From Girardia tigrina (taxonomy: Eukaryota): a DNA stretch of 64,000 nt. Shown piece after piece: positions 8,701 to 46,464 of this stretch. The notes under the pieces are model-generated. The model worked only from the letters and a program-made list of their open reading frames with translations. It searched no databases and was not told the origin of the DNA. Numbering within the stretch: position 1 is the first letter of the stretch; each line of letters begins with the position of its first letter. The position numbers were made by a program, and so were the translations under genes. The stretch is from positions 8,834-72,833 of the forward strand of contig MQRK01218605.1 of the NCBI GenBank assembly GCA_001938485.1, written 5' to 3'.

Positions 8701-11700
8701 TGCCGAATTCACGAACTATATGATAAATTTTTATTTTAATATGACAATTTCTCAATTAAAAATGAAAAATTATGTATTTAATATAAAATATCAATTTAAT
8801 ATGAAAAATATTAATTTAATATGAAAAAATCAATTTATTAGATTTTCCTAAAAGTTCCCGGTCAATAATGAAAATACAATTTTTTTAAATTTCTTTTTGA
8901 TATTATTTATTTGATATTGATATATATCGATTTATTTATAGCATTATATGGATTACGAGATTACAAAGCTTGAAATCCGTGTGTTGCTGCGTCACTATTG
9001 GAAGAAAGGCTTGATAACACGAGATGCTGTCAAAGCAATTTGCAAAGTTGAAGGTACACAAACGGTCGGAAAAGGTGCGGCTTTAATTCTTTTTACTTTA
9101 AAATTAAATTAAATTATTTTCAATTAGTAGAAATCAAAGAAAATACTAATCATCCATCTGGGTAGGAGAGACACAATCCGAATCAACATACAACATGCAC
9201 AATATCAACAAACAATTCAAAACATTACTCACAACACGTTATGATTGTTTAAATTCCAATCCAAATCTCATGAAAAACTATATTACTTCTTTGGTATCAA
9301 CTTAAGATTAGTCGAAAAAAATATGTTAAGCATGATAAAATTTCGTAAATTTAATTAAAAAAAATAAAATTATTTAATCGTCGGAAATTAAAAGAAAGTA
9401 AAATGAATTATTAATACTACATTTATTTTTATTATACGGGTTTGAGACTTAAGAAATTAGGAAATAAATAAATTTAATCTCGATTAAATTTGTTTAAATA
9501 AAAGTAATAGACGTTTTTGTGGATTAATAAAACTTGAAAAACTGATGTCGGCTTTTAATATTGACAACGTGGAAGATATTCCAAAAGCATCTAACAGCCA
9601 TCATCAATGATCATTCTACCGGTACAGCGTCGGTTTTGGCCGACACCGGCTCGGCCATATCCGTTTTACTCCGATCGAAAATAAAACTTCCAAAATGCTC
9701 ATTTTTTAACCCAGTGTTGTATTGTTGGGACACGTCCTATCACAAGATGACATCTTTCCACTGCCAGATCATATCTGTAGTGCCCTACTTACTGACACTA
9801 CATGACTGTTTTGTTTGTATGTCTTTTGACCTTTGTGCTGCTTTCGTTTTTTCTTGTACAAAGTCTTGGTTTCGCTAGCTGTTTTTATTTTTTTGTACAT
9901 AAATTTTCCTGTGTGTGATGAATGTGATGTATATTGTTTTTTTTTGATGTTATTTTTGAAAGATTAGTGATTCATTAAGCCAATGATCTCGAGTCTCAAT
10001 TCTTTGTCACAATTAAAGAAAATAAATCAGAAGGAACTACTTAAAGAATTATGTGTGAAAGAATTATGCGAAGGACCTATATTTTCCTTGCCAGAATTCA
10101 AATCATTTTTTTTGATTGAGTTTTGATTTATTATATAGTGATTCTAAGATATCGTCTATGTCAACAGAAATAGAAAAATAGAAAATAGAAATTTAGTTAT
10201 GAAAGCAAAAATGTTTCTTAAATAAATCGAATTCCAATTTTGTTACTGAAAATTTAAAAAATGATATCGATAATAAAAAATCTAAGTCCTTACCCAGTAT
10301 AAAGGAAATTGAACAATGAAAAAGTAATCTTGAAAACGATTTCGTTAATTTTGAAAGACAATATTTTAAGTTTGGATAAATCAAGTAATTTAATAACATC
10401 ATTAAAAAAAAATTACATCAGTTTTAAATCAATGTTCGAAGGGTGATTTAAATATTTTGAGATCCAATGACAAGGGTATTTATGAAGGTATTTGTCACCA
10501 AATTGTTAGTTGGCCTTTAGATCATTACAAATCTANNNNNNNNNNNNNNNNNNNNNNNNNNNNNNNNNNNNNNNNNNNNNNNNNNNNNGATTATTATGTA
10601 CGTAATAGAAATAGGAATGATTCAGCGCAAGACATAAGTTCTTCAAAATATTTTAACAATCAGCTTATTAATGTCGATGTATCCAGAAAAATGACAACCG
10701 AAGAGAAGTTACAATTACATTAAGAAAATGGTTGATAATTATCAAATGACTTTATTAAAATGAAAGAATTAATCAGGAAATCAATAAACTGATATGGATT
10801 AAACAATTAAAAATAATTACTAACTTACCGATGATTATGCGAAAGACGCTGGCATGCATTTGTGGACTTTCACTATCTGTATAAAAAAAATTATTTGAAT
10901 AAGGTGATATTTTTTTTTGTTGTTCCTTTCCTTGTGTACTTAACATTAAAAGTTATTAACTGTTAGCGTTCTTTTATTTAATTATTTCTACTTAGTTGTT
11001 AGTAAGATTTGCTATTTCATAGTTATCGAAATAGTAAATCTTACAATATCAAAGCTATCACCGAGTTTCCCTGACCAGAAACGGTTACCGCCTTGCGTAG
11101 TTTCCTAGGGATGGTCAACTACTGCCATATGTTCGTCTGTCACATCTCAGAGACGTTAACTCTGCTCACGGACATGTCTTGTAGTTCGAAGAAACAACGC
11201 CTAGCCTGGTAAGGAAATGTGATAACGGCTTTCAAACAAATCAAACAATATTTTGCACAGACAACTTCCCTTCACTATCCAGATGTGTCATTGCCGATCA
11301 CATTAACAATAGACGCATCCAGCATCACGAAAGGAGCCGTTTTGACGCAAGTGCGCGACAATAAACCCGAACCTTTAGAGGTTTTCTCACACAAACTCTG
11401 GCCCGCACAGACCCGGTATTCAACATTCGACAGATAACTTTCTGTCGGTAAAACATTTCGAAAGTTCCTCAAGAAAAATTGTTTAAATAATTTTTATTTG
11501 TATTATTAATAAAAATTTGGTGTTAATGAATTATAATCTTGATCAAAAACCCAACATGTCGACCATCACCAGCAGCTCCGAACAACTAATTTCGAGGCTC
11601 ATACCAGACAAATTTAAGCTATAAGATAATGTGAAAACATTCATTTCGGCTTGCGCAAGATACTTCAAAGTGGCCGAAGTATCGGAAAGTATGCAAGAGA

Positions 11701-14700
11701 TATTGGTAATTGGTTTCTGTCACACGAACTTGTACCAATATACGAAAGCGTGGGTCCCGAAGTGAAGGGATATGAAGCCCGTCTACGACAAGCTTTTCAG
11801 ACGAAAAGCACGTTAATGGAGGATTTGATAGAGGCGGTAAACTTCGAGAGATCTGGAGAATCAGTGGAGGAATTTTTCTTAATCATAATGAATTCTTTTG
11901 ATCATAAATTTTATGCAAAACTTATTTATATTTCATTTAAGCAAAGTTTAGCGTTTGTAGCTCTTGGGCCTGTGTAATTATTGAAGACAATCTCGTTGGA
12001 CACTCCAGCAGTAGTTTCTATACAATTTCTATCGTATTAGTTTAGATAGTAGTAGTTTCTATCACATTTCTATACGATTCCCCTGATAAATTTTGCCCCC
12101 TGTTAATAGTATTTACCGAACACTATTTAAAATTAGTTAAATAACAGAAATAATTATAGAAATAAATTGTTTCAACAATTAAAAAATCCAGAAAAATTAT
12201 GTCTAAAAATATGAAATCTATAAGAAAATTAACAAAAATGTTATAATGTTGTTATATTTTTTTAAATAATTTATCACAAAATAAAAAAAAATATTCAAAC
12301 TAACATGGTCCCACCAACATTCAGAAAAGTTAGGTAATTGATGTTCTAGTGTATATTCAAGAAATTCAAACATCAAACTGAGGACATTGCATAGCCAATA
12401 ATCTCGAAGAATAAGTGTTTTAAAATACCATCCAATAAAATGTACAACAACAAAACCATCCATTTTATCCTGTATTTTAAAATATTAGTTATAACGTAAA
12501 AAAATACAAAAAATATAATAAAAAATCAAATTAAGTAGAATTTATAAGATGTAAAATATAAAACATACTTTTTTAAAAAATCAGGCTTACCTTTTCATTG
12601 GATCTGTAATGGAAAAACTTGGAGTCCACAAAGATCAGCTGAAATTTTTCAATAATGATATTCAACAAGTTGTTTGGCTGATCAGGGTCTTATTTGAAAT
12701 GAAGTTTCGTAATCGATGCAAAGGTGTCGATTTTTGGAGTTTGACTATGAAATGTTCCGAATTTTCTACAATTTATTCGATTCGGAGTCGAAATTGCTGG
12801 TCCGCAATTCAAATGAGTTGTCCAATCAAGCCAGTCTGGGTGGCAAAATAACTGACCGGATGAGAGGAGCATTTTCATGTTTTTGGGCATTGTCCAACTC
12901 TGAGATCATGGTAGAATCTTGAACTATAAAGTCTGACTCCAAAACTGTTTAGCAGAATAATTTGGCGCTGATTAGTGATTTTGATAGTTCGGTTTTTGAA
13001 ATGGTATTTCCGTATGTTTCGGAATTTCGAACTAAAATTCTTATTTATAATTTAGTATATTTTTTATATTTCGGTTGTCTCCTTTCTTCTTAACCTAAAG
13101 ACTATCTTTCTCTCTTACGATTAATTTAAAACAGTTTTGAATCTTAAAAGACTTCATTCCTTCTGTGATTATTAAATTTCGTCAATTGAACAATAACGGT
13201 CAGAATGGATGTTTATTTATAATACACCTTTACCACCTTTTTTCACTCGGTAAAACAAATAGCCATTTTTTTCCGTAAATTTATTGTATAGGGTGTTCGA
13301 AAAGTAATGGGAGGAAATTATTTTGTACGCATATCTAACAAAATAAAAGAAAATGCAAAGTTAATGGTACAGTTGTATCTACCAACAAACAGAGAGTGTT
13401 CTGATTGGGATCACATTCGCAGTGGTTTTTCCTGCATGTTTTCCCTGTTCGAACCGCTCATACGCTGCCTTGCATGCTCTTTTGACCATGTCCTGTGGTA
13501 TTTCTTTAATGCTGCACTCGATCTTGCCTCGGAGCTCAGCAATGGTAGCAGGCCTTGTGCGGTGCACATGCTCCTTCAGGTAGCCCCAGAGGAAGTAATC
13601 ACACACAGTTAGGTCAGGCGAACGAGGGGGGGGGCACTCCGGTACTTGAAGGTGCGTAAAGGGTAGGAACCCCGTCATGCTGGAAGGTAAGCCTTTTATA
13701 TTTCGCACAATACCACACAGTTGTTTGCAGCAAGTGTAGATAGGCATCAGTATTGACTGGAGCATCAAAGAAGTAAGGTCCCAAGACACCCACCAAAGTT
13801 ACTCCACACTGTGATACCTCACTTTTGGGTGATCAGAATGTAATCGATTTTATTTTTTTTATCTCTGTATGAGGTCTGTGTTTGATATATTTTCACTAGT
13901 ATGTAATTATTTCTGTTCTTGGTGTACAATGTGCTTGTAATTTTTTTTGGTGATATTTTGAGTGTCTTTTTGAATTATGTTTTCGATTTTATTTTCGTTA
14001 GAAATAAATTGAATCGTAATTTCGTTTCATTTGGACTGTGCGATGTCCAAATGCGAATTTTGTCATTCATGCGTTGAACCTGACAAAAGTCTCACTCTCA
14101 AAATTTGTCAGAACGTATTTTGACATGTATGTTTATATAATTATGTAAGAGACAATCTGAAAGACAAAATAGACCGTTTAGACACTTATAGGAGAACTCA
14201 TCCGAATGCCAAAGTAGACATTCTACGCGAATATATAAGCGACCATTTGAAACCCCAAATAAAATGCCCAAATGAAATGTGTCAGAAAAATATTCCGGAT
14301 CAAATAATTAGAAAATATTTATCGAACGAACAGACTAAGCTCTTTGATACTTTGTCTTGTTTGGCAACTTCCAAAGATTTTAGGAAATGTCTTACAAAGG
14401 ATTGTCCAAAAATTGCGTCTGTGGAAAGTGACCATGAATTAATTTATCAATTATTGTGAACAACTAAACTGTTTAAACGCCAAAAGAGACACTACCCAAA
14501 TGATTATGGAAGAAATGATTTAAATGAAAATGATATGAACCATTCTGCCAGATGATGCTAAATAAAAATTTATTATAAAAAAATAATCATTAAATCGAAT
14601 TGATTATGATTATAGGATAATTATTTACCGTGTTTCTGGATTGAATATATTTGATGACTCTAAATAAAACTTTTTTTGACGAGGTTATTTCTTTTATTTT

Positions 14701-17700
14701 TTTACTGATTCAGGTTTGATTTTTGATTGTTGTTAGACATTCGACTTAATCCAACTGAGACTTATCCGTTGGATTAGGTTGATTTGATATTGTTCGTTTT
14801 GTTTGTATTGGAAGTAAAAATAGTTGATTCATTGGTTTCCTTGGATCAACTATTTTTACACACACCACACCATAATTCCCTGGCGAAAGTTTAGAATCTA
14901 CTCTTGAGAGTGTGGATTCTTTGAACCCCACTGAACATTGTTATGCCGTGACACTGCTCCAGATAAGTGAAACAAAGATTCGTCTGTCCATATTATGTGA
15001 TCAATTAAATGATGGTTAGCGTCGAATCTCTCCATAATCGTTTTGGAAAACTCTTCTCACTTATCAAAGTCACTGAGTATTGGTATGTTTTGCGGACAGT
15101 AGGGCTTAAGATCAAATTTCACAAGAAGGCGGTGCTAGCTCGTTCGTGGCAGATCAAGAGCGGCTGCCACACAAGACACAGAATTTGAAAAATCTGGGGC
15201 GACTAACTTTTGATCTTGGACACGGAAAGATTCTCAACGCTTCCAGTCTGCTGAAATTACTCAAACACTGACTTGATCGTCGTAAACTTAGGATGTGAGG
15301 TAGCGAAATGAAAATGCCACTGTCTTCATCCGCTTCCTAATTCTAGAATTGTGAGTAGAGGAGTACCATTTTAATTCTCTCCTCAAGAGGGCGTCGTGTC
15401 AAGATTTTATTCATCTGTAAATAAATGAGATTAGTCAGTGTTAAAACTTAAATATGAATTTCTGCGAAATAAAATTCCATTCTGGAGATAGATTAAAACA
15501 AACATTTCTCCCATTCCTTTTGAAACATCTTATATCAGTGGTTCCCAAACTGTGTGTCGCGAAAAATGTACAAATGTGTCGCGAGATTTCAGAGAAATAA
15601 TAAAAAAATATTATTTAAATTTTAAATATTAACTTCAAATATTACATTTTAAATTTTAAAATATCATATAATATTTTATTTAATTAAATTTGTTTTAATT
15701 TCAAGTTTTATATTGCGAAGAATCAAAAACATTTTTATTGAAGTAAGGAAAATTAAAATACAGATTTTTAATATTTTTAGTATACCCTTTAGATATGGAT
15801 AAGTTTTTAAGGAAAGCTGACGAGTAAGAAAATGCAAAACGTCAAAGAAAAGTAATTAAGCGAAAATTCAGCGAAGAATATATAAAATATGGGTTCATTG
15901 CATCTGGATCTGATAATGCCCAAGTTCCTTATTGCTTAATTTGCAATACAACGTGGTCAAATGAATCGTTGGTTCCAAATAAACTGAGGAGACATTTGGA
16001 GACAAATCATCCAATACATAAAACCAAATCTAGGGAATATTTTGAGAACTTAGCAACCGAAATTAATCAACAATCGAAAAAGATGACAAACTTTTTGAAG
16101 ATACCTCAGAAAGCTCAAATTGCAAGTTACAAGATTGCCCAATTGATTGCTAAACGCAAAAAACCACATACAGAAGCTGAAGTAATTATCGCGTCAGCAC
16201 TTGCTATTGTTGTCAAAACGATGATCGGACCTGAAGCAGCTGAAAAAATAAAAACAATACAACTGTCAGACAATACAATTTCAAAAAGAATTGAAGAATT
16301 ATCATCTGATTTGCAAGATCAAGTTCGCGAACATTTTGAAACACCTGGAAATAAGCTTTGGACATTTCAAATTGATGAATCCATTGACATAAGTAGAAAA
16401 GCTCAGGTTCTGGCATTTATTCGATTCGTCAAGGATGAGAGTTTTGTGAACGAATTCTTCTTTTACAGGGCTGAAGAGCACTTCAACAGGAGACGATATT
16501 TTTTAGTTGGTTAACGAGAACGTATCGCTATTTAAATTTGAGTGGAAAAACTGTGTAAGTGTTTGTACTGATGGATGCCCATCAATGCGAGTCAAAATTT
16601 TATTACCATTTTCGTCTTCATGGTTTTGTGAAATTGGCTTTTCAGCATTAACTGAAATCAAATCCAAAAAGCGAGAAAGACTTCTTAATGTTTATGATGA
16701 AATGCGAATTTGTTTGTCCTAGGACCCTCGGTGGAGTCTAATTTGTTCTCAGAAGCAAGTTCATTTGTCGCACTGAATAATTTTTTATTATTGTTGTTGC
16801 TTGTTGCCCCAGTTTCTGGTTGTTGCTGCTTTAATCTTAAAGTTTAATTGGTAACCAATGCGGTAGAGAGTCATCCCATTCCGCGCCATTCTATTCTTGA
16901 AGAAAGGTGGCTCAGCTCAATCACAGATTGAATCTAGGAACCTTGTCTGGGAGCAATCTTCTTCTGAGACGGCTTCATATAAGACTAATCCCGTCTGCCA
17001 TGCAATATTGGCGGGCGTCCATTTTGAAATTGAATGAAAACATGGTCTCCGACAGAGAATTCTCACGTCTTCCGTTCCTCCATGTTCATAGACAACTCCG
17101 CATTTTTGTTTAATTCTTTTTCAAGCGCAAAATCCGGACGGATTCTGTCCAATAGGATTCTCAGCTTCCGCCTCATTAACAGTTTAGTCGGACTAAATCC
17201 GGTTGATCTAGCAGAGCCTTCGATATTGCGTTAAATGAAATTGCACCAATCGCTTTTGCCACGAACCGCTTATAACCCTGGTTAAACTATCTTTGGTAGT
17301 TTGATCCACACACTCAGCTATGCCGTAGCTAGCTGGATGATAAGAAAACACCAAGATCTGTCTTATTAGATTTTTGGCCGAGAGCTGACGCAATTTCTCG
17401 GAGGTGAACTGCATGCTACCACTGAGTTCGGTAACTAGATTTAATTTTAACTGAAAGAATCCTGAAAATCATGCATGACAATGCTAAACTCCATATTTTC
17501 AGGATGACAGAAGAATTTCGTAGAGAGAATAACATTGCTCGACAATCTCAGTCTCCATATTATCCGTTATTAAACTTACTGGATCATTTCATCTTTCGTA
17601 AAATGGAATCTCACTTTAGGGACGGTGTATTTGCTGATATCAATAATTCAAGCAGATTTGTTGAACTTTAGTAGACGACTTCTGGCAAGTGAACTGACAA

Positions 17701-17840: not shown

Positions 17841-17877
<37 letters not shown>

Positions 17878-20800
17878 TTATAATTTTTACTAAAATAATA
17901 AAAATAGGTTCATTGCAAATTGCTAGTCGGGTTTAATATATTGTTTTGTCTAATATCCCAATTTCAATGACATTGTTTTTATAAATACTAATTAATTAAT
18001 ATATTCAAAGCATATTTCATGAAGATTAAAAAACATTTTCCATCAAATTTAATTATCACTGACCAATATTTGATAAATAATGAAATTAATTTTTACAAGA
18101 TATTAAAAAGGCTTCTTTAAAAACAATAAATGTTTTTTAAACAAAACAAAATTTTAGAAAATGAAATTAAAACTGTTAGTTATTATTCAAATAATAAAAC
18201 AAATAAATCATATTTCATTTTAAACAAATATTTATATTTTTTAAATGTTTAACTTACCCAAACATTATGAAATGGATCTGATGTATTATTTGGATCATAG
18301 ATCAAACAATTCCCTCCATATTCCTTCTCTTCTAAAGGTTTTCCAAGTTGAGAATCAAAATATTTAAGCATTTTCCTAGCATCTGCTACGTTCTGTAATA
18401 AACAGTAGTAGATAAAAATAAACATTACACGCTTTCCAATATTTATACCAAAATTTATATTTACTTCAGGTAAGGAAATCATTAATTGATAACATTAATT
18501 ATAAAATAATAATAAAAAGTAAATACAACAATAACACTGAAAAAACATCTTTCTTTGAAAGTTTTATCCTTTAATGAAACTCTCTTCGACTTAGCATTTG
18601 TTTGAAATTATATTTCCGGTTGATAAAAATAGTAAGGTATAAGTGCTATATTGATAAATAGCTATATAAATAATTATTAGGTGGCCAACATTTTCATCAG
18701 GCGGGCCAAATTTTAGAGATAAGATTTTTATTATTATTAAAAGCAAAGAAATAAATGTTTTTTAAAGAAGATATAACAAAAATGGGAATTAAACATATTT
18801 ATTAGATTATTAGTTATTAGTTACATACAAAAAATAATAATAATAAAAAATAAATAAAAACGTCTGATTTTATTTCTCAGAACTAAGTGCATCAATGTTG
18901 ACATCGATTGATGTTGTTGCTAGCCGCAAACAGTTTTCTAAATGCTCATCAGTGATCCGTGTTCGGATTAGAGATTTAATATGCTTCATTCGACAAAAAT
19001 GTTTTTCACAATTAAAGTTGCTTTCAAAAAGCGAAATAATCGATAAACCATGTTAGTAAAATGCAGGATGTTTCTCCTTGTCCAAATATGTTTTATAAAA
19101 CTCTTCCAAGCATGTCTGATTAAATTTATCCCATAATTGGGTATGACCGCAAATTTCACAATGTTCCATTTATAAATTCCTGACAAAAAATTAACGTCTA
19201 TGGAGAATGGTGTAGCAAATGCAACAAAAAGCACACGATGCTTTTTTTAAAATCTTGAAATCGGAATTAAAATTCCAAGTTTAAGTCTGATATTAACGAA
19301 ATTTACTTATCCGCAACCATTTGTTTTACATCTGTCTGCAACGATAATGTAAACAGGTGATTGAAGATTTCTGTCCGTAACTGTTGTTCCAAAAGTCCAA
19401 GTTTCGTTTGGAACGCAAAAATAAGATTATAAATGTTATTAATAAGTAGATTTTTCCCCTGTAAATAGTATTAGCCACAGCTAGATGACTAACTATATCG
19501 ACCAGAAATTTAAAGTTGTAAAATCACTCCTTATCTTAAAATTCTGAAATACTTTTTGACATGCTTGCAAAGAATGATTGTATTTCTTTCTTCAGATCAA
19601 ACACTCTTATCAATATTTTGGAACGACTCGGCTTTTGCATTAAATGTAACGTCATTATACTGTAAATGCAAAGACTCGAGAAAATATAGGAACTGAAGGT
19701 AATTCAATCCTTTCGACTAAATAAAGTTCACTGTTTTGATGACCACCTTCATGACGTGATCCATTTTAAGGGACTTCGCTCATAAATTCTCCTGATGCTA
19801 TGAAAAATTAGTCTCTATTAAGAACACCAATATGGTTTTTCATACATTTACAATACGTCCTCAGCCAAGATCTCATAATTACACATCTCGCTAAATTGAT
19901 AACTTTTTATTAATGTCTCGTTAATAAACAATTATTCGAACAAATTTTCATTTTAAATCATTTTCAGATTTTATTTTTATAAATTCTACTTTTGTAATTT
20001 TGTTAATAATTTGATCTAAAAATTAATTTAATTTTAAAATGATTTTTGTTGGGTTCTTGATCAATATTATAATTCATTAACACCAAAAATTTATTAATAA
20101 CACAATTAACAATTATTCAAACAATTTTTAGTTAACAATTTTTTTTAATAAAAAATTGTTTGTCGAGGAACTTTTTCGTTTTCTTTTTGACCAGATTTTT
20201 TATATAAAAAATATGAAATTATAAATATAAATAAACTGATAAGTTATTTTAAAATTGAAAAATTTTTATTCCATTTATTCTGAAAATTTACATTCCACTA
20301 TTTATAAATTAAAACCAACATAATTTTATAGTCATATTTTTAATAAATTAACCATAATGATTTTTTTATTATTTTAGAATTAGTTGAATGTTATTTCTTT
20401 TTTTTGTGAAACATTAATAAAGATTTTAATGTTTTTTTATTATCAATATTTCAGTTTAAAAGCATTTTTTACCTATAATTATTTTAAATACCATACTAAT
20501 TTTAGATACAATTTAAATACAACAAAATAATTTACAATATTCAAATTTTTATTATTATTACGATACATTAATGATAAAAGTCTTAATATTTATTTCTATT
20601 TAAGAAAACTGTTTATTTGTTAAATCTTTAATTTGCAGAATTTCAAACTGACTTTAAAATTTAAAATTATCTGTTTTTTTTATTTTTTAGAATAACTTTT
20701 AAAATTAGTACAACATAATTATCCTGCTCTTTGTATATTTCTTTTAAATCAATTATTTAAAAATCCATTATTTCCCAATTAATTTCATTTTAAATTTTTC

Positions 20801-23800
20801 ACTCTACAATTAAAATTTGATTATTTTCGAAAATAACTTTTTTAAATTAATTAAGATATATATATACATATATTTTACTTAAAATTGATTTAAAAACTTT
20901 TGATTTTAAATATTTAATTATTTTAGAAATTCTTTATAAAAATTAATTGTTTTAAACATTTTAAAATTGAGCCCGACCTTCACAATTATATTTAACGAAA
21001 AACATTTATTTATTGAATTTAAAAATAAGTTAAAAATTATTTACTTCAATCAAATTATTTAATATTCAAATCTTAAACGATTTAATATTTTTAAAGTTTT
21101 TTTTTAATATCTCATGTTAAATTTAAAAGGCAAACTATGCTCGAATAACTATTCATCGCGAACATCCAAAATACCAATTTTCCATCAAGGTAGGAGAAAC
21201 ACATTTCCAAATGCTTAACACAATTAATACTCAACACACATAAATTCAACATACCAAATCTAAAATATTCCTCACAGTCTCGAAGTATTACCAACTTCAC
21301 AGGCTTCATTTTCAATCAATTTTACAAAATCTTCATGTTTTCCAACCATTGCTGGAGCACCATCTGTTTTTAATCCCGATAAATTTTCGAGTTGTAACGA
21401 AAAGCCATTCAATGTTTATGAGACAGCTTCTAAGAAATTTCGAGAGCAGGAAGTGTCCTTAAGTGGATACAGTGCATCGAATTCTTCTGTTTTGTTGAAG
21501 TGCACATCAACATCCCTGATAAAAATCGCACTTTTGCAGTATTTGTTAAATCTTTGCTTTCATCCAATTATAGAGCATAAAATATGAATTTAGATGCTCG
21601 CTTTTTCAAATTGTCTTTAATGTGTTTTCCAATGACGACGATGCCCCTAGTAATACTTTGACGAGACAGGATTATTTATGAGAAATCCCTTTTTACTCTT
21701 CTGGGCACAGAATTTCAACGACACTAAAATATTCCTTAACTATCAGAATATGGCTTCAATTTTTTGCTAGTACCCTTGCCACTACATATAACATGCAGAT
21801 TCCTGAGCTGCTCTAGTATATATTATATAATTAATATATTAATATCTGACGTTGTGCAGAAAGTTTTCTTTTTAATAAATTTACTTGGTCTTGTCGAAAT
21901 AACCCTTTGTACTTATCAAACGCATTTGCATGTTTAGTCTCGTAATGTCGTTTAATGTTATGAGATGTTAGTTTAAATTTTTCAATTCGCTAAATAATTT
22001 ATAGATTTTGTTCAAATTAAAATTGATAAATTAAAAATACAAAATTAAAATTTCAATAAAAGTTATTGAATATGATAAATTAAAATTAGGATAAAATTTA
22101 GGATAATAATTTAAACGAAATTAATTAAAAAGTTGAAGAAATGAAAAATTTCATAAATGAAAATTTGTTTTAAAATGTAACGGGTTTACTGTCTAATCAA
22201 GTATTTCCCACAACTCCATATATTTGTAAATCAATTAAATCTGTAAATCTCGCCTTCATTTCTTGGAACAAAATTTATTAATATAAACCGGGTTTTTTTC
22301 AACAATTAGTTTTAGTGCTTTCCGGCACGTCTGATTGTTTGGGGAATTGAGCGGGGAGCACTGGTTCATCGGGTTTCACGCCAGTACCTCTTGCATTCCA
22401 GGAGGTACTCATAGAATTGCAACCCACAAGTACACGCGCAAGAGTTTCATCTTCAGGACAACCTCTGCAACAGGGTACGTGATATTCCATCCAGGGACGA
22501 TACCTCCCAGGGATCGTGTATGATCTGGCATTACGAATAAATATCCATTCAGAATTTGTAAGTCGACCAGCATACAGTGGTGAGGTGGAATATGCAGACT
22601 TAGATAAGGCAGACAAATACCTTCCAGCATTATTCTGTGCATTTCAATGTACCAGGTATGAGTTCGAAATACAATTACGAAGGGTTTTTGTAAGTCTGTC
22701 CCTATTATTCGGTGTAAAAAATTCACTGGTGTAAATACCCCACACATGTTGGTATACACTCAGCACGACACCCGGGTTGGTATAAAGAAATGTCACAGTA
22801 ATACCGTAAATCTTTTTGATATCACGAAGGGTGTGCTGAGTCTTATGCCACTAACAATTCCGTTCCTCTTTATAATCTCGACTTTATAATCTCAGAAACT
22901 TTCCCTGGCATGGTATTTACAATATTATGCTCAAATTATAGCAAAAGGGAATGAGATTATTATCCATATGACTTTTTCATTGCCAGCTTTTCCATAATAA
23001 TTCATTTCATGTAGATGTCTCATTATGGTCCATTTGGAGACTGTAGGTGTGGTTTAGAAAAGTGATTTGAGCGAGGGATGTATTTCTGTTTCTCTTCATT
23101 ACACCTTTACAATATATTATTAATTAAAAATCTTATGTAACGGAACAAAAAACTTTATAATAATATATTACATTTCTCTGTGCTGGACATAAAGGGAGGA
23201 CGGTCACTTCTGGGAAAAGAAAACACATTTCCTCTCGTTTTGAATGAGTTTATTGTGTCTCTTATAGTAGTTTTGGGGTATTCAAACTGAGATTTTCCAC
23301 TTAAATAACAGCCAATTATGATACCACGCTGAGCTTCCATAAGTTCACAACCCTTCATCTTAAAAAATGACCTCCATGAATTATACTATATTTTAGGAAA
23401 ACTGTATTTTAATAAGGAAACATAGTAAATAATTATTATTTCAATTTTTGATTTTTTATATTTCTTTTGTTATATTTAAACAATTAGATATACTATATTT
23501 TATATTAATACCGGGTATTTGGATACTTTCGCTAGGGCGGTGTAATTTAGATCAATTTTGGTTGCAAATTTACAAGATTATGTTTTGCATTTCTGTGTTC
23601 ATGCATAAGTATACTTTACGTATTTATAATTTTATATTTATAATTTTTATAAGATCAATAGATGTAATGAAATAAATGAATAAACGTATTTATATATTAA
23701 ACGAATCTAAATATTCATAGTTTAAATATAAATATTGATAAGATGAATAAAGGTATTATTGAGTGACCAATGCTATTATTAATTTGTAATAAACAATAAA

Positions 23801-26800
23801 TTTTATAGTTTTTATATTGGTATTTATTTTTTAAAGTTGAGTGAATGTTCGTATCTGGAATTGTAGGTCTATATTATAGTTAGAGACTTCCAAAATAGTT
23901 AAAAAATTACTCCACTAAAAATTATTAAAATAAATTTAATCTACTGATTTGTTTTTTGAATATTTTTACATATTTTTCAAACTTATTTATATACAAGTCT
24001 ATTTTAATTTGTAATTTCTTAATTATGGAAGAAATGTTTTGAAACTGTAAAATCTAATTATAGAATTTTGAAAGTCAGAATTGAAAATATAAAACGTAGA
24101 TTTTTAAAAGTTAAATTTGTGAATATTCTTAACAAAAGTAACAGCAATCAAGTTTAAATATAACAAATTAAAAATTGAAAAAAAATCAAAAAAATAGTTG
24201 AGACTCTTAAACGTATTAAATATTAAAATCTGATATACCAAATAAATTTTAATTATTGTTATAGTTTGTATGTTCCAAGTTATCCTAATTAAAAAATTAC
24301 AAAAATGTATTTTTTATTTTTTTTAATTGATATATAAATATTTATTTTTTACATTAAAAATTGTGTAAATAAATATTTTGGGACATGATCTGAAGACCCC
24401 AAAAAAATTGGTAAATACTTATTTCATAATTGATTTTACTTTTATAAATAAAAATGTTTATAGATTAATTTTCAAATTTTTTTATCAGTATTTTTTATGA
24501 CAAGAATAGTCCAGGACACAATATCGAATTAAATTTTACAATGTTGACATATTGTTGTTTAACTTTGTTGTTTTAAAGTTCTCAGATTTACTTGTATTTG
24601 TTATTTGTGTTGGTATTTTACTTTCTTAATTGAATAAATTGTTAACTAAAAAGGTATTAATCTTTTTATCTTGTTTGTCTTTACAATATTAATAATAAAA
24701 ATAATTACTCTTTTAAGAGACATACCTGATAAATTACTATAAATATGTTTGTGTATGTTAAGACACAGATAATCTCTTTCTCAAAAAGAATTCCTTGCAA
24801 AAATAATTAAAATATAAAATACCAATATTATAGTAAATTATCTCATTTTTTGACATAGAAGATTTTAAAAGATTTGAAAATATAACATTTTGATAAATTC
24901 ATGTAATTTCAAAATAATCAATATTAACATACCTGAAAAAGTAAAAATATGAGTCCCATTTCATATAAAATACTAAGGCACAGAAAAAATCGCCAAAAGG
25001 CTAAAAAAATAAATTAAGTTTGCTTTTGTTATTATTTTATTGTACACTAATTATATAACAGCAAAAAAAATAAGTAAAACATGACCATAAAACAAATTGT
25101 TATTAAAATAAAAATATGTTTAAATAAAAAATTAAGAGCTTTAAATTATGGTATAAAATATTGTACCTATACATATTATTGTAATATTTCGTATATATTA
25201 TTGGATATCCAAGGTCAATAATTATGATTAAATAAATTTCTTTTCCTAAATTTATTTGTTAAATTTATATTTTATTGATGAAAAATATAAATCAGTTAAA
25301 AGGAAATGAATGAAATTCAAAATAATTATAAAAATGTAAATCCTAAATTTTTAAAACAATTTCAATCTAATATAACAATAAAATTATTTCAAAAAAAATC
25401 GAATACATATTTTTTATAAAATAAATACTTTTTTTGAAAAACCGACTAGACAAATACTTTGCTATTAAAAAGTTAACTTTTCTTAACCATCTTTAATTTT
25501 CATACCTTTTAATAACATCTTTAATAATATCTTTTTTAATAACTATAAACCAATCAATAAGAAGTGAGTAGCACCCACCCCACAGAAAGTTTCTTACTTT
25601 TAAGCTCTGTGGTCATGATGTGGTGTACAAAACTATAATGCATGTTGATAAGGACTGCGATCTCTTTAACAGTGACACGTCGATATCCGTCAATAATTTC
25701 CTCGATTGCTTTTGCATTTTCCACAGTTGATGTGGTTGTTGTTGATGAGGTTGTCGCTCCTGGCGTTATCCTCCAACGATTATAGACCATTCTCTAATCT
25801 TTGCTCCCACTTGTAGGCGGAACTTTGGTACATGACTGCATCACCAAATAAGACATAAACGCTACGTAATGTTAACTGGCGATATGCCTTCCTTCTATAG
25901 AAAATAAATGACTGCTCGTTGTACCTGAACTGCGTTTTACGTTTATTCCGAAATAGAAGAAAATGAGTAATTCACAAAACAGCCAACTATTTTGATGCAT
26001 ATAGTCAACCAATTACGTCAATCATATTTTCTAATTGATTGACAACTACAAGACTACACAAAAAAGGCAACAGGTAATTGTAACGCATACATATTCAGCC
26101 AGTGATTTGACTATTTCCACGAACTTTGGATAAGTCCATCGTAATATATTTTTCTCTTTGAAATATTTTCACTTTATTCAAATTCTTTAGATCCTGATTT
26201 ACAAACAAAATACCAGTATGTTTTTGTTCAATAAATATATTTTCTTAAGGGTATTTATTAACCTTCATCCGTCCCTCGGGTCTTTTTCGACCCAAAGTGT
26301 ACAATCTTTTTAGTGTACAGTCGATTTGAGGGACCGATGAAGATTAAGAACATTGAGACGATTCTCATTTGAATTTTTATTACTACAAAATTTAGAGTCA
26401 TTACAACTCTCAGAAGATCTTTCATCGTTTGACATCGCTCTAATTGGTTTCGTTATTTCTATCTTTAATCATGATTATTCGAAAAAATTTTCTAAATCTT
26501 TTAAAAATACATAATTTTTAAAAATATTAATTAAAAATAATAATTTAAATCACTTCTAAATAAAAACACAAAATTATAAAAATTTTATCAAATTATTAAT
26601 TTAAATATTATTAAATTTATTTAAATTTAATTAAATGCTTTTCTTTACTTAAAAAATATTAAACTTAATTTAAATTGTTAATTTAAAAAATAAAAACTTA
26701 TTATTTTAATTATGTTCGAATAGTCAACCACTTTAAATTTAAAAAAATACTAATTTCCATCTGGGTGGGAGAATCACCATTCTAAGTTCAGCATACTCAA

Positions 26801-29800
26801 ATTCACATCAATACATTCACACATTCAAACAATTTAAAATATTCCTCATATTATTAAAAGCCACTTTTAAAACACTGTTTAAAAATAATAATTTTTGAAA
26901 TTGTTCAAGTGTCATCTTTTTCATTGAATAAATTAAATAATGTTTGGCTTTTTATTAACAACTTAGAATCATAATTTCTGGAAAATATGCGACTTTCAAA
27001 ACATTTTTACAATCAGAATGTATAGTCGTGAATGTGACTTTATTACCTTCCCGATTAATTTTTCAATTTTTTACAGTTTTTTATAAGACAAGGCAAATTG
27101 TATTTTACTTTTTATTTTGTTAATTCACGATAAATATAAATACATTTGCAAATAAATTTACGGATCAAGTAAATAAAATGATCCTGGGATAATTTTATTT
27201 ACTAGTGCAATTTGGAGGATTAATTTATTTACTTGTGTAATTTCCGATTTTTAATTATTTTTAATTTTTATATTTGCAGTATTTTTATATTTATATTATT
27301 AAAAATGAGTTCCGATTATGAATTAATTGTGAACCCATTGACCAGTGGTTCAAATATCGATCTCATTATTTTTTTTCAAAACCAAAGTGTTTTAAAATCA
27401 CCAATGGTTTGAGCAACATGTTTAACTAAAACTGTCTCTGTCAACAGATTCAATGTTTCAGATAAATACACATGGAGATGTCTAAACGAACACTGTGTTA
27501 AATAAAAATTTTATATACCTTTAAGAAACTGTAGTTTTTTTAGAAATTTATAAAATTTCGTTAACAAATTGGTTGGAAATTATTTATCAATGGTCAAAAG
27601 AAGAATAAATCTAAAATGTTATGAAAGACCTATCAATATCTAAGCCAACAATTGTTAATATTTTTAAAATTTTCCGGCAATTTTGTACCAAATATCTTAC
27701 TGAAAACCCTATTATGTTAGGTGGTAATGGAGTGATATGTCAAATATACGAGTCTTTATTTTGTCACAAGCCAAAATATCACAGAGGTAGACCAAGTGAA
27801 AATCAAATATGTGTATTTGGAATCGTTGACACTAGTTTTGTTCCTACTCGTGGATTTATAAAAATAGTTAACGATAGATCCGCTTCAACTTAATTTCCAA
27901 TTTTTAAAGAGGTTTGTCAACCAGGAACAATTATAAGAAGCGACCAATGGCGAGCATATCGCGATGTCAAGAAGGATTTTCAACATGAGACAGTAAATCA
28001 TTCCGTAAGCTTTGAGGAGCCTAAAACAGGTGTTCATACTCAAAATATTGAGTCATATTGAACCAAGATGAAAGCTAGAAGAAAATTCATGAAAGGAATA
28101 AGAAAGGATCAATTAGAAAGTTATCTTAATGAATTCATGTGGGTGAATATTTTTTTCTGGGTGAACATTTAAAAAAAAACTTTTGATTTATTAAAATATA
28201 GCTAATAATTTTTTCATTCTACTTAATTTTACTCAGTATTTATTTTTCGTATTTTTTGAGTTTATTTGAAGGATTAATTTATTGACTTGTGTAAATTGGA
28301 GGATAATTTTATTTACTTGTTCAACTTTTGGATCATTTTATTTACTTGACCCAAATTTACAAAAGTCCCCGTTTACCCACAACTGATCATTTACTTTATA
28401 TCACGCCAATTTTAAAAATCTTGAAAATATTTTTTTTCAAACTAGCTAAAATAATCATGGTGTGGAAATAGTATGTGAGGGATCACTTTCAATAAATTCC
28501 ATAGATATTCCTCTAATTTTTCAAAAAAAATTTAGCTAGAAAAAAGAAATTAATTTTCATTTAAATTAATAAAGTTTAATTAATCTTGAATATGCTATTT
28601 CCAGTATACGGAAAAAAGGTACCGGAAAAAAGGGTACATGGAAAAAAAGGGTACCGGGAAAAATCCCACATTATTTAATTATAATTTTTAAGTTAACTTT
28701 TATGGATCTAGAAATTTCTTATTGTAATTTTCTCGGATCATTCACGAGATCATATTGCAACTCGTGAATGATTTTTCCATCATGTCTATTAAGAACATTT
28801 AGACAAGTCGCGTTTGAACTTTTATTACAATCACATTTAAAGTCATTATGACTCTCAGAAAGTCTTTATCGTTTGTCATCATTCTAATTGGTTTTCTTTT
28901 TTTGATTTTTTAATCATGATTATTCGAACAATTTTTCTAAGTCATTTTTTTAAATATATTAATTAATGTTAATTAAAAATAATAAATTTTACCATTTCTC
29001 AATAAATCCAAAAATAATAAAAATGTCATCAAATTATTAAAAATACATTTAATTTAAATTTTACCAAAAAATATTAAACTTAATTTTAATTCTTAAATTA
29101 AAAATATGAACTTATAAAATGATTATTTTAATTATGTTCGAATAGTCAATTACTTTAAATTTAAATAAAAAATACCAATTTCCATCTGGGTGGGAGAATC
29201 ACCATTCTAAATTCAACATACTTAAATCAACATACAGCATCACTACATTTACACATTCAAACAATTTAAAATATTCCTCACAATGTCTAAAGTATATGGA
29301 TGAAGATTCAGGAGCTAGAAATCACAAGCTCTTATCACCATGATGATAACTTCAGAGTTTTTTTTGTGTTATGATGGATGGATTGACCTTCTTGTCACTT
29401 GACTATGTTAAAGAAGGAATGAAGATTTTACGTTCCATCACTCCACCAAATGGACAAGAATTAATAGCATGTAGCAAATGTTACAGGTACATATCCCCGT
29501 GTTAATGATACAGAAACTGCAGCGAAACTTCGTTACATACCTCCACCATTTCCTCCTCCCATTTGGAATGTTCATCAGGTGACCTCTGAAGAAGCTCGAA
29601 CCAACAATCAGAGCGAAGGTTGGAATATTAAGCTATCAGCCCTTTTTTCCTACAATCATTTATTATTTATTCAAATTTAAATAATACTAAAATATTGAAT
29701 GAAATCCAAACTGTTGTAATCTGAGAGCTTATAACTATAATGGATTGAATTTTAAGTGAATTAAAGTTATCAAAACCACAATAGTGAAACTATTTATTTA

Positions 29801-39719: not shown

Positions 39720-41620
39720 ATGTAATAAGTTATATAATAGCACTTATATCTCAGATGCAAGTCATTACAGCCCAACTATCACCTCTAAGTACCAGAAATC
39801 ACAGAGAGCACCGTCTACAACAATAGCCGATCAAACGCAACTAATCACGAAGCACAAATCTTTGTTGGTACCACTCGAAGTCTGGAACCCGAGAGCGAAG
39901 ATGTCAATCCGGATGCACATGGAAAGGTGACACAGCCGAGTTCCATCTACATAATATATACATTTACCACTCCCGTTATGGTAACAAGGCAAAACGCTGT
40001 GCACCCGGGTGTTCTTTTCAACAACAAAAAAACTGAGATCGTCTTCGATCTTCGCCGCCGATAGAGAAGACGACGACAATTGGTACGGCATTTTTGTTTG
40101 TAATGCCACTATCAACGGCCAGGCCACCTCGTCAACGTCGTTCTTGACCGACACTGGGTCTACCATTTAGATTTTACCAAGATCTTTTAAGACACACATA
40201 AGTCCTACTTCCCGCTATCTCTAAGCCGCTAATAGATCAGTCGTCCACACATATAGAACAATGCAATTATCGTTCAAGCTCGTTGGCATAGTACAAAAGT
40301 CGTCGTTTTGAGATGTCTTCCGCATTTCTTCTGGGAAACAAGATCGGATTGTGACATATGATAAGAAGTGGATTCTCTACAACAATCGGCGAAGTTCGGC
40401 ATAATGGTTCGACCGCGATGAGGCTCCTTACCACTTTCTGAAAACGAAACTCTACCAAAAGAAGGTTAAGGTGACTGTTTGGTGGTCTACAACCGGTCTC
40501 ATCCATCACAGCTTTCTGAATACAGGTAAAACGATCACCGTAGAGAAGTACTGCCAACAAATTGACAAAATGGATCACGAGCTCTGAAGTATGTGTCCGA
40601 TGTTGGTCAATATGAAGAGGCCGATTCTCCTCCATGACAACGCCAAGTCACACATCACAAAATCGACCATTCAAAAGCTAAACAAATTGGGCTACGAAAC
40701 TCTGCCTCATCCACCCTACTCACCGGACCTCTCGCCCACTGACTACTATTTTTCAAGCATCTGGACAACTTCCTCCCGGAATAAATGCTTCAAAAACAAA
40801 GATGACGCCAAAGATGCCTTTAACGCTTTCATAGCATCCAGAAATCCGGTGTTCTATACTAGGGGCATCAGTAAACTTGTTTCTCGTTGGCAAAAATATA
40901 TTGATTCTGATGGTTTTTATTTCGATTAATAAAATGTATTAAGCGCTGAGATACATTTGTTTAAAGTTTAGGTTCAAAAACCTCAATTGTTTTTGCAACA
41001 ACATAATATCTTGTTCTAAAGAGGCAGTGAAAGCTTTCCAACAGACAAAACTGGATATCGTGTCGACCACCAGATAGCTCACTACGAATCACATTAACCA
41101 TAGACCCACTGAAAGTCACAATTGGAGCGGTCTTGACGTAGGAACGCGATAAAAAATCCGAACCTTTGGAATTATACTCACATCAACTATTTCCCAACCA
41201 AACACGGTACACTATCTTCGATAGAGAACTTCTCAGTGTGTTCCTATCGACCAAACACTTTGAACATTTGTTAATAGGCCGATCGTCGATAATTTACACG
41301 GATCACAAACAGCTGCTTAAATATTTCAGATGAAAAACTCATCACCTCACCAGCAGAGAAAAATCAGTTATCTGTCTCAATTTAATTAAAATTACTTTTA
41401 GGAACCAACAATGTCATAGCCGATTGTTTTTCACAAATTGAAATGGTATCATTGAACTTCAAACCATTATTTACTCAGGAAATTTTAGAAAAAAATTCAC
41501 CATCTGACAATGATTTGGCTAGCTTCAAATAATGACCGACAGCCTGCGGCCAAATTTACTTCGACACCTCTATCATAGATTATTTACGGCTGTTGTCTGT
41601 GACCTTTCCATCCATCGAGC
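39720..41620 (+). mobile_element. Gypsy gag/protease and RNase H fragments, split by a mariner
   Basis: CWYHSKSG knuckle, FLTDTGST and FDRELLSVFLSTKHFEHLLIGR..IYTDHK. Confidence 0.75.
40270..41006 (+). mobile_element. Cecropia-subfamily (Hsmar1/Dtmar1-like) mariner, 5'-truncated
   Basis: QKKVKVTVWWS..GLIHHSFL, PILLHDNA, LPHPPYSPDLSPTDY and SRWQKYIDSDGFYFD; 3' ITR ...TTTTGCAACAACATAA followed by TA. Confidence 0.92.
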
Positions 41621-41815
41621 GCAGTGATGAGCTATAAGGGGCTCGCGGGGGTTCGCGCGAGAACTTTGGTAAACGGTTCTATAATTTGCGTACCCCTTGT
41701 TCTTTTCGATAACTACTTGTATTTTTTCAAAATGAAAATATAATACCTTAAAAGTTTTAAGGTATAATTTGTATCTATTATTTATTGCATTCATTATTAA
41801 TATATATTTTGTTTT

Positions 41816-41930
41816 TGTGAGGAATGTTTTAAATTGTTTGAATGTGTAAATGTATGGATGCTGTATGTTGATCTAAGTATGTTGAATTTAGAATGGTGAT
41901 TCTCCCACCCAGATGGAAGTTGGTATTGGT
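41816..41930 (+). repeat. TGTGAG-terminal repeat family, copy E, joined to Gypsy pol
   Basis: TGTGAGGAATGTTTTAAATTG...TCTCCCACCCAGATGGAA; reverse complement of the copy C/D ends. Confidence 0.8.
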
Positions 41931-41944
41931 ATGGAAGTTGGTAT

Positions 41945-44905
41945 GGAAGTATACAACAGATTAAAGGGTCGACCAAGTATCAGAGTCATGATAGAGGACA
42001 CATAAATTGAATGCCTATTAGATATGGGAGCAGCCTTAAACGCGATGACAGAAGAGATACTTAAGAAATTAAAGAGCACACGAATGGAACAAACAAATCA
42101 GAAATTGACAACAGCAAACGGATTAAAAATAGATATTAGAGGAGTAATATAAAAACTGATAAAAACTGGGAAGAAATCAGAAAAAATAAGATTTATAATA
42201 GTAAATAATTTAAGACGAGACATGATTGGGGGCATGCCATTAATGAAAGAATTCGGAATAGAGCTACAATGGAAAGAAGATAAATAACAGGATACGAGTA
42301 AAATTAACATATGTGAAATCGAGGCAAAGTTTGGGAAAGGAATCGCAGACGAAGAACGAGGAAATGAAGCATTGAGAATGATCGATACGCGAAATGATAA
42401 AGCACTAGAGAAAATAATCCACCAATATCAAGGCATATTCATGGCAGACGACTGATATATCGACTGTACAAATTTGTTACGACACAGAATAGAAACAACA
42501 GGGGGACCTTTAAACATAAAACCGAGAAGACAGCCAGTACATTTAAATGACAAAATTGAGGAAGCAATAAAAAATCTATAGGAAAATGGAATAATTAAAC
42601 CATGCAATTCACAATGGAACACACCAATAGTATGTGTTTGGAAAAAAGACAAGGACGAAATCAGACAATGCCTAGATTTCAGACAGTTAAACCCAATTAC
42701 GAAGAGACAGGCATTCCCAATGCCAAATATAGCGGAAATGATGGATATGTTACATGGAACCAAATATTTTAGCACAATAGACTTGGGAAACGCGTACTAC
42801 CAGGTAGAATTGGACAAGGAATCACAAGAAAAACGGCCTTTTCAACTAAATCAGGACAATTCTGTTTTAAACGAATGCCTTTCGGGATAGCAGCAGCACA
42901 AGGAATATTTTAGGAACTAATGAACAAAGTATTAAAACCGATAAAGAAGGGAGCATCAGTTTATCTGGACGACATATTAATAGCAACAAGCACTAAGGAA
43001 GAACATTATAACGTAGTGAAAGAAGTATTTGGAAGAATAAAGGAGACAGGATTAAGAATCAAACCATCGAAATGTACAATATTACGACAATAAGTAAAAT
43101 TTTTCGGACACGTTATAAAGGGATACAGACAGACCAAGAAAAAATAGCAGCAATAGAGAATTTCCAAAGATCCTCATGTATCAAAAATTTAAGAATTTGT
43201 CTAGGAATTTGCAATTACTACAGAACGCGTACTACCAGGTAGAATTGGACAAGGAATCACAAGAAAAACGACCTTTTCAACTAAATCAGGACGATTCTGT
43301 TTTAAACGAATGCCTTTTGGGATAGCAGCAGCACAAGGAATATTTGCGAAATGAATATGCGAAGAAAGCTAAAATATTGGAAGGATTGTGTGACTCGAAT
43401 AAAGAAAAATAATTTGGACAGATCCATGTGAAATAGCTTTTCAGAATATGAAGAAAGTATTGATAACGGCACCAATATTGAGTTATCCAAATTTCAAAAA
43501 AACAGTTTATTCTAGATAGAGACGCTAGTTTCGACAGCATAGGGACGGTTCTATCGCAGATAGGTGAATCAGGTAAGGAGCAAGTAATAGCATATGGATC
43601 ACATTCTATGTCAGCACACGAAAAAGGATATTACATAACCAGAAAAGAACTTTTCGTAATTATTTACTTCTGCCAACATTTCAATCATTACTGGTACGGG
43701 AAAATTTTAAACTGAGAACGGACCATAAAGCTATAATGTTCATGTTTCGTACAAAGAAACCATTAATAGCTCAATTTCAAACGTGGATGAATTACTTGAG
43801 TAGTTTAGATATAGAAATAGAATACTGGAAAGGAGAACTACACAAGGATATGCTATCAAGACGGAATTGCGACACGTGTATCCAGTATCAAATGGAACAT
43901 GAAGAAGCTAAAAAGGGTAAGAATAAAACCAGATTGTTAGCAGTGACTACGAGGAGCCAAGCGAGAGCAGGTTAAAAAGAATGGATACTTAAAGAAAAAC
44001 GGAACGATTTAATCATACAGACACATAAATTATTGTGTCATGCAGGAGCAGAAAAAGTATACGAATATTTGATGGACAAGTTTGACATGGAGGAAGAAAG
44101 GAAAACTGTAAATGAGGTAATTGGAACATGCATGGATGTGCCAAAAAACAAAAACAATGACAACGAAGACAAAGGAAGAAAACGTTAAAATAACAGCGTC
44201 AGAAATATTTGAAAGGGTTTATATAGAAATATGTGGACCGTGGCATGAGACAGTAAGAAGGGAAAGATACATTCTCGGAATGATAGATCACTTTATCAAG
44301 TATATCAGCTTGACGGCAATCAAGAGACAGGACGAAGAAATAATTTTTCAAACAATATTACAAAAATGGATATTAAAATTTGGTGCACCAAAGTAGATAC
44401 ATGTTCATTGTGGTAAGAGTTTTGAGGCAAAAAAGTTAGAGAAATGTTGGAGATTAGAGGCGTTAAAATAATTTTCTCCAGTCCATACCACCACAATACA
44501 AATGGAATAATCGAAAGACAATTCAGGACCATACGAGAATTCATTCAAGCAAGTCTGAAGGAAAGGAATGCCATGAGTTGGGCCGATATATTTCCAGATG
44601 TTGAATTCACATTAAACGCAACAAAACAAAAAACAATAGGGTGCAGTCCAGCGGAAGTTGTGTTTGGTAATAAAATAGACAGACAACAGTGGTACAATGG
44701 AAGCAAAATAAACCGAGAGGATATAAGACAAAGAATAAAAGAAAAGAACATCCCGGAAGTAAATGAGACCGAAAGAGTATACAAGGTTGGAGATATGGTC
44801 TGGATACAGAAGGAAATAAGAACAAAAGACGAAGACAGATTTGAGTGACCATATGAAATCATAGAAAAGATTCATGATAGGAGTTATAGTTTGAAGGATA
44901 CTGTA
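41945..44905 (+). mobile_element. Degenerate Gypsy pol (PR-RT-RNase H-IN)
   Basis: CLLDMGA, CLDFRQLN, FSTIDLGNAYYQV, VYLDDILI, DAS..IGTVLSQ, H..LCHAG and SSPYHHNTNGIIERQFRT, in Gypsy order with many stops and frameshifts; 120-bp internal duplication. Confidence 0.93.
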
Positions 44906-45519: not shown

Positions 45520-45848
45520 ATATGAAATTTAATGGTCGATGATATACTTGATGAGGTACTTTGAAGGTTGATATTGTAATTTTGATGGTTGCTGAGACAC
45601 ATTTGATAATTGATGATATAGTTGATAAGGTATATTTGATGGTTGAGAGTATGATGGTAATGGTTGATAATATAGTTCTTTTAGTATTTTATATATTATT
45701 CAGTATTTTCTTTATTTTTTACATGTTCTGCGGTGCATTGACATGATGGATGCAATACGTTGACATGATGAATGCATGCCGATATCACCTTGGATACGGT
45801 CACTTTTTGAATGGTTGATACGATAATGGTTGATAACATAGTATAATA

Positions 45849-45897
<49 letters not shown>

Positions 45898-45947
45898 NNN
45901 NNNNNNNNNNNNNNNNNNNNNNNNNNNNNNNNNNNNNNNNNNNNNNN

Positions 45948-45983
<36 letters not shown>

Positions 45984-46300
45984 TACATACATAATGCGCA
46001 TATATTCGAAAAAGCAGTAGATATCGATTTCTTCAAAAATGGAATATGTTTATTCATATATGACTTACTGTCCATGTATTCAAACAGATTTTTGATATTT
46101 TGCTTCCTGGGACCTCTATACCCTATGGGCATTTGACACCATATGTGGGCATTCTGCCTCACTGTGAGCGTTCAACATCACTTTCAACTATATTATATAA
46201 AAAACATAAATATATTACACTTTGCACAATTGTGAATTTATTGATTTGGCACACTTGCACTAGGCTGCACATGTGCAGTATTAATTAGGACATGTGCAGC
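45520..46300. repeat. Second copy of the GGTTGAT/(TA)n-associated repeat
   Basis: Colinear with 2683-3360. Confidence 0.75.
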
Positions 46301-46319
46301 ATACATTCAAAAATTATTT

Positions 46320-46464
46320 TAAATCTTTTGACTTTAAAATTAAATTATTTTTAATTAGTAGGAATCAAAAAAAATACCAATCATCCATCTGCTTAGGAGA
46401 GCCACCATCCGAATTAACATACAACATGTACAATATCAACACACAATTCAAAACATTCCTCACA
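46320..46464 (-). repeat. TGTGAG-terminal repeat family, copy F
   Basis: Starts TGTGAGGAATGTTTTGAATTG at 46464; closely similar to copy A. Confidence 0.8.

Follow-up and report, generated by a model that had tools for sequence, protein, structure and literature searches.

Six dispersed copies of a repeat in a 64,000-nucleotide stretch of Girardia tigrina DNA (contig MQRK01218605.1 of assembly GCA_001938485.1, positions 8,834 to 72,833; hereafter the window) were identified as solo or truncated long terminal repeats (LTRs) of a compact Ty3/Gypsy retrotransposon family of about 5.2 kb, which has TG...TA LTRs and is probably primed by host tRNA-Arg. The probability of this reading, including the tRNA-Arg priming and the mechanism proposed below, was put at about 95%. 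A preliminary description of the window had taken the copies, with termini at 9233(-), 21276(-), 26850(-), 29282(-), 41816(+) and 46464(-), for the 5' ends of a very long LTR of a giant retroelement. The coordinates, strands and readings of the six termini were reproduced. The common terminus proved real, its 15-mer giving 6 matches at <=2 mismatches (1.06 expected, and 4 at most in any of 100 shuffles), and the same was true of the common inner motif (6 matches against 0.08 expected). The flanks beyond the TG were unrelated: alignments stopped there, with copies B and D alike over another 12 bases by chance. The subfamilies A/F, D/E, C and B also held, with identities of 87.5% for A/F, 95.5% for D/E, 77.6% for C to D over 526 columns, and 70-73% for B to C/D/E.

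The extent of the LTR was determined from 87 genomic copies, the 29 best matches each to copies D, A and B in the assembly (1.43 Gb in 255,254 contigs, some of which are duplicates). After removal of eight same-flank duplicates, 79 non-redundant loci were retained; two subfamily-B loci with an exact duplication were lost in this step to a cut-off twin. Likeness among the genomic copies ended at about 500 bp. Both LTR ends were present in 56 of the 79 loci. Twelve of 16 A loci measured 385-433 bp, 20 of 21 D loci 473-504 bp and 18 of 19 B loci 516-566 bp, and the outliers were five longer copies and one shorter. The right end read TA in 52 of the 56 two-ended copies and CA in none, which contradicted the CA far end anticipated earlier. 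Of the two-ended loci, 49 had no adjoining polypurine tract (PPT) or primer-binding site (PBS); among these, an exact 5-bp target duplication was found in 31 (0.46 in shuffled pairs), and in 40 when one mismatch was allowed (2.65 in shuffled pairs). A 6-bp duplication with a TAAT end was rejected because an A lay outside the left duplication in only 5 of 31. The sampled LTRs were mostly solo; seven of the 79 followed a PPT and two preceded a PBS.

Genome-wide, 31,990 exact LTR left ends were counted, compared to 6 for the reversed control, in agreement with the earlier assignment to LTR 5' ends of an abundant family. The density of about one copy per 10 kb proposed for it was correct for the window, but one exact left end per 45 kb was found across the genome. 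At about 0.5 kb each, the TG...TA family may account for roughly 1% of the genome, a figure which truncated copies would lower and diverged ones raise. The LTR-PBS junctions of the genome comprised 2,712 with TA and 24 with CA, and TA was therefore regarded as the fixed state. A separate CA-ended subfamily was rejected, since these 24 junctions were scattered over several subfamilies; most of them look like scattered changes, and the near-identical L182, L183 and L189 may form a small branch.

Whole elements were examined in 32 loci chosen by reverse transcriptase (RT) likeness from 40 listed. LTR pieces flanked both sides in 8 of the 32, and both outer ends together with the duplication were present in 4. 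One whole element was 5,193 bp long, with LTRs 98.0% alike and an exact duplication, and the other three measured 5,165 bp (one mismatch in the duplication), 4,837 bp (a gap) and 3,173 bp (an internal deletion). Paired direct LTRs around gag-pol were also present in L163 and L167. Both outer ends with the duplication were found in none of 20 junction loci and none of 20 further ones, and thus only in the RT-chosen set. The internal part without deletion was 4.1-4.3 kb, and the complete element about 5.2 kb. Its order was LTR, PBS, gag with two CCHC knuckles, protease (PR), RT, RNase H (RH), integrase (IN), PPT and LTR; the paired direct copies around gag-pol with duplication, PBS and PPT which the preliminary description had proposed to look for were in this way recovered, with a duplication of 5 bp. 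Ten natural fragments were scanned, in which the CCHC knuckle, aspartic protease, RVT_1, RT_RNaseH, Integrase_H2C2 and rve occurred in Gypsy order, and no domains beyond gag, PR, RT, RH and IN were detected in these ten. The closest solved RT structure was that of Ty3 (E 3e-53), and pol matched 911 longer proteins at E <= 1e-30, the best of them 87% identical and about 1,000 aa long. Close pol relatives (<=87% identity; P0001-P0120) were present in environmental assemblies, and the LTR was seen in leaf-litter metatranscriptomes as well as in sequencing runs attributed to four organisms.

The gag and pol regions lie in different frames, and a conserved GGGAAAC heptamer was located at their overlap, about 1 kb after the LTR. 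Based on established knowledge of such heptamers, a -1 ribosomal frameshift would be predicted at this site. The contigs of four sequencing runs covered 30 of 30 bins of one element; they were not used for expression, because the RNA status was guessed for three of the four runs and contigs cannot show transcription.

The PBS directly follows the TG...TA LTR and starts with TGGCGAC. It overlaps gag, whose ATG is formed by the last LTR base (A) and the first two PBS bases (TG), and it doubles as gag codons 1-6. Genes for tRNA-Arg(ACG) were found in the genome, including tandem genes, one of which reads GCG at the anticodon. In 27 of 30 junctions the PBS paired with the 3' end of this tRNA over an unbroken 7-11 bases, and 17 of these 27 matched over 11-12 bases with one bulge; the remaining three junctions were longer copies. 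With a search pattern in which the LTR end was joined to 16 nt of the tRNA complement, and to which stops below 16 nt are invisible, 68 junctions carrying the complement of tRNA-Arg(ACG) were collected and assigned to 46 independent groups. The tRNA copy stopped at 16-19 nt in 39 of the 46 groups, with a mode of 18, just before A58, and at 37-39 nt in five groups, just before G37, which Trm5 would be expected to convert to m1G. One group stopped at 26, and one held the whole 76-nt tRNA with CCA. A wrong base was read opposite A58 in 4 of 7 read-throughs. Self-priming was dropped, judged by eye, once the tRNA-Arg copies were found.

It might be proposed that the element is as described, and that the tRNA junctions arose through tRNA retrocopies made by long interspersed nuclear elements, or when the element recombined with tRNA genes of the genome, and not in its own plus-strand synthesis. 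Tandem tRNA-Arg genes do exist in the genome, and the gene with GCG at the anticodon means that the full-length copy cannot show inosine; an inosine-34 reading of that single copy was not claimed, the genomic gene having the same letter. Against such an origin, 68 of 68 junctions began with the CCA complement, which the tandem genes lack, and did so precisely where the LTR ended, a placement partly built into the search pattern. The clustering of stops at 17-18 and 37-39 nt and the wrong bases opposite A58 argued in the same direction, and this origin was considered unlikely.

The following cycle is proposed for the family. Minus-strand synthesis would be primed by host tRNA-Arg(ACG) on the short PBS (7-11 contiguous bases, or 11-12 with one bulge) and plus-strand synthesis at the PPT, after which integrase would join the TA-3' end at U5 and the CA-3' end at U3. 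The solo and truncated LTRs were likely left when the paired LTRs of an inserted element recombined with each other, and by later deletion. As gag codons 1-6 coincide with the PBS, a copy that inherits the primer sequence loses the gag frame. In nine junctions gag resumed in register behind the tRNA copy, and it was shifted by +1 in all nine, which were not one event because several subfamilies and junction types were involved. The overlap of gag with the PBS would thus select against inheriting the primer sequence, and the family probably propagates without it, like Ty1 and Ty3, for which primer sequence is stated not to be inherited (PMC5371799). The rare primer-inheriting copies would record where RT stopped on the modified tRNA. 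The same stop classes were reported for HIV-1 plus-strand strong-stop products on tRNA-Lys3, with a main stop before m1A58, a minor one at position 37 and a rare copy of the whole tRNA (PMC13191261). Differently from HIV-1, the products here are integrated genomic retrotransposon copies, and gag is put out of frame when the PBS takes up a copy of the primer.

Several junctions were also observed in other contexts. In L242 (G000:C118957) the whole 76-nt tRNA-Arg copy with CCA was fused to the LTR end and was called a tRNA gene by ARAGORN; such copies can therefore inflate tRNA counts. Eight junctions (L235, L236, L240, L241, L246, L281 twice about 520 bp apart, and L300) showed the LTR end, a perfect 17-nt tRNA complement and a common non-gag sequence, and possibly represent a small non-autonomous or tandem derivative which spread with a perfect PBS. 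In L221, L230, L266, L275, L284 and L285 the tRNA copy was followed by the integrase end just before the PPT, in the manner of minimal elements like terminal-repeat retrotransposons in miniature.

Based on the genomic LTRs, the six copies of the window were delimited as listed in Table 1. Copies B, C and D were full-length with both ends, and copies A, E and F were truncated, as the preliminary description had supposed. Copies B and D were confirmed as true insertions, as earlier asserted, because uninterrupted relatives of their hosts carry both flanks side by side: the flanks adjoined in 6 of 7 loci for the copy-B host, and among nine loci for the copy-D host most clearly in L258, L259 and L260. 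In L258 and L259 the flanks shared the 5 bp that are duplicated around copy D. The copy-D host was MULE-like, Pfam MULE being matched only at E 0.007 in the relative L261. The proposed hAT host of copy B looked hAT-like by its motifs and had one weak match (E 0.006) to another hAT piece of the window, and three of three fragments had no Pfam match.

Table 1. Positions of the TG...TA LTR copies and the associated sister-family sequences in the window.
Feature	Positions (strand)	Description	Support
Copy A	9082..9233 (-)	Truncated subfamily-A LTR, 152 bp from its start (~385-433 bp when complete), without far end	96% to solo LTR L039, flanked by a target duplication, over positions 1-152
Copy B, 3' part	19816..20046 (-)	LTR remainder, TA end, then GAGAC duplication	
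LTR nested inside copy B	20047..20984 (-)	938-bp solo LTR of the sister Gypsy family, TG...CA ends	Own 5-bp duplication with one mismatch
Copy B, 5' part	20985..21276 (-)	Subfamily-B solo LTR, positions 1-292	89% to solo LTR L074
Copy B duplications	21277-21281; 19811-19815	GAGAC on the left; GAGAC again	
Copy C	26342..26850 (-)	Full-length 509-bp LTR, older branch	
Copy D	28787..29282 (-)	Complete 496-bp solo LTR, TG...TA, within a MULE-like element	Exact 5-bp duplication GACAT
Copy E	41816..41927 (+)	First 112 bp of a D-type LTR; abuts foreign pol	
Sister-family pol	41962..44900 (+)	Decayed PR-RT-RH-IN adjoining copy E	Pfam RVT_1, RT_RNaseH, rve_3
Copy F	46302..46464 (-)	Truncated subfamily-A LTR, 163 bp from its start	91% to solo LTR L051

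A second Gypsy family with TG...CA ends, here called the sister family, was involved in two of these copies. The LTR nested in copy B resembled the sequence after PPT and integrase in sister-family copies, up to 91% over 903 bp, and it was the same LTR as that downstream of other copies of the pol adjoining copy E. The TG...TA LTR start followed none of 29 close copies of this pol, and those inspected ran into a PPT and the sister LTR; copy E as the 5' LTR of the adjoining pol was rejected on this ground. The protein identity between this pol and that of the TG...TA family was 28-62%. At 11460-11630 (+), the 3' end (CA) of a sister LTR directly joined a gag-like frame, and the same junction was seen in L104. 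The gag-like ATG was again formed by the last sister-LTR base and the PBS, which, but for one bulge and a mismatched third base, resembled the complement of tRNA-Arg(ACG).

These data bear on the view that a giant element of the Burro type, with LTRs of several kb, left the copies as 5' LTR ends after erosion had removed the far side. The TG start, the AT-rich body, the flatworm host and the 1,461 bp spanned by copy B (19816-21276) would suit it, and the length of 1.4-1.6 kb given earlier for copy B was correct as a distance, but 938 bp of it is the nested foreign LTR and the remainder an ordinary solo LTR. When the 87 genomic copies were extended, all except those with insertions ended at 385-566 bp, where the far end and the 5-bp duplication were found, and the duplication-flanked whole elements were of about 5.2 kb with 4.1-4.3 kb inside. 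Burro (GYPSM1) is a planarian giant Gypsy element that exceeds 30 kb, as much as 25 kb of it internal, and has a 4,873-aa open reading frame (PMC6431247), compared to related pol proteins of about 1,000 aa here. Both families are Gypsy elements of flatworm hosts with thousands of copies; Burro encodes in that account a single huge polyprotein with BIR, ankyrin, MATH and env-like domains, none of which were found in the ten fragments scanned from the 5.2-kb TG...TA family. Neither the very long LTR nor the giant, Burro-type element could be maintained, and the chance that this view is correct is very small. Equally improbable is a non-autonomous DNA transposon with weak terminal inverted repeats, like a miniature inverted-repeat transposable element: the two LTR ends together do form an imperfect inverted repeat and most copies are solitary, but direct pairs surround gag-pol, one partner preceded by a PPT and the other followed by a PBS, 2,712 LTR-PBS-gag junctions exist, and the inverted pairing into one element that a Polinton would also have is not seen among the window copies.

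Some observations weigh against the compact tRNA-Arg-primed Ty3/Gypsy family. The selection of best matches to three queries favored young copies. Of the 79 sampled loci, 21 lacked the far end, as did copies A, E and F in the window, and nine further loci had both ends without a duplication. Copy C had both terminal dinucleotides altered, and its target duplication was gone. The native PBS was short, with only 7 contiguous bases in 18 of 30 junctions, 7 of which were not improved by a bulge, and in 14 of 68 tRNA junctions the upstream sequence had no match to the LTR set used. Both whole copies with mapped frames were broken, and the GGGAAAC heptamer was present in 15 of 20 motif-holding copies out of 67 stretches examined. 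Close pol relatives among the 120 listed homologues bore no clade names, so that no clade could be assigned.

Other features of the window were recorded as well. Exons of a flatworm C2H2 zinc-finger gene lie at 55551-62348 (-). Its fingers are 54-73% identical to those of proteins from trematodes and cestodes, and the best named relatives were found in trematodes, cestodes and Macrostomum, which marks the host as a flatworm. Decayed DNA transposons were located at 1-354 (hAT dimerisation end), 1605-2446 (Tc1-like), 15828-16900 (BED-type hAT), 27615-27890 (Merlin-like by motif, without a Pfam match) and 40588-40926 (mariner-like). A duplicated, very AT-rich open stretch at 32343-34541 (-), in pieces of 122-155 aa, had no Pfam match.

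Compared to Ty3 of yeast, the family shares the PR-RT-RH-IN order, the PBS and PPT, the 5-bp duplication, the size of about 5 kb, a short PBS and a primer normally not inherited. Its own features are the TA right end, the tRNA-Arg primer, the PBS overlapping the gag start, the candidate -1 slippery site and two CCHC knuckles. Ty3 uses a +1 frameshift. The Drosophila 412/mdg1 group has a tRNA-Arg PBS likewise beginning TGGCGACC; its elements are longer, with a leader between PBS and gag. The canonical TG...CA termini, usual though not obligatory for Ty3/Gypsy, were found in none of the 56 two-ended copies of the TG...TA family. In plants, TG...TA is one of seven motifs of non-canonical LTR elements, of which 870, 89% of these being Copia, were listed against 83,368 canonical ones (LTR_retriever, 10.1101/137141). 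Such plant elements agree with the present family in termini and 5-bp duplication; they are rare and mostly Copia in that account, whereas here an animal Gypsy family has >30,000 ends. The available section of an annelid survey gave other non-TGCA motifs, TGTA not among them (PMC8220671), and planarian Gypsy elements were called abundant without family detail in the part of PMC11410931 consulted. A link to microsporidian elements was dropped, as the planarian cases in the part of PMC4202319 at hand concern Merlin and not LTR elements. No description of the TG...TA family was found in the literature listings searched, and it may be catalogued in Repbase or curated planarian libraries. It is a compact, very abundant animal Gypsy family with a fixed TA end, TG...TA ends themselves being known in plants.

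On balance, we favor the broader interpretation that a Gypsy lineage with >30,000 ends in an animal has a fixed asymmetric TG...TA attachment site and a PBS trapped by coding, in which any change to a perfect tRNA complement costs the gag frame, and that its failed corrections preserve in the genome the traces of modification at m1A58 and G37 of flatworm tRNA-Arg(ACG). LTR finders set to TG...CA would miss or mis-bound a family of maybe about 1% of the genome, and an animal Gypsy integrase can apparently thrive with a TA end. The primer-overshoot copies would name the primer tRNA directly and show the stop sites of reverse transcription, and with them the question why an imperfect PBS persists in some retrotransposons could be tested on natural material. 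If this interpretation is true, a genomic record of tRNA modification would be readable without any RNA.

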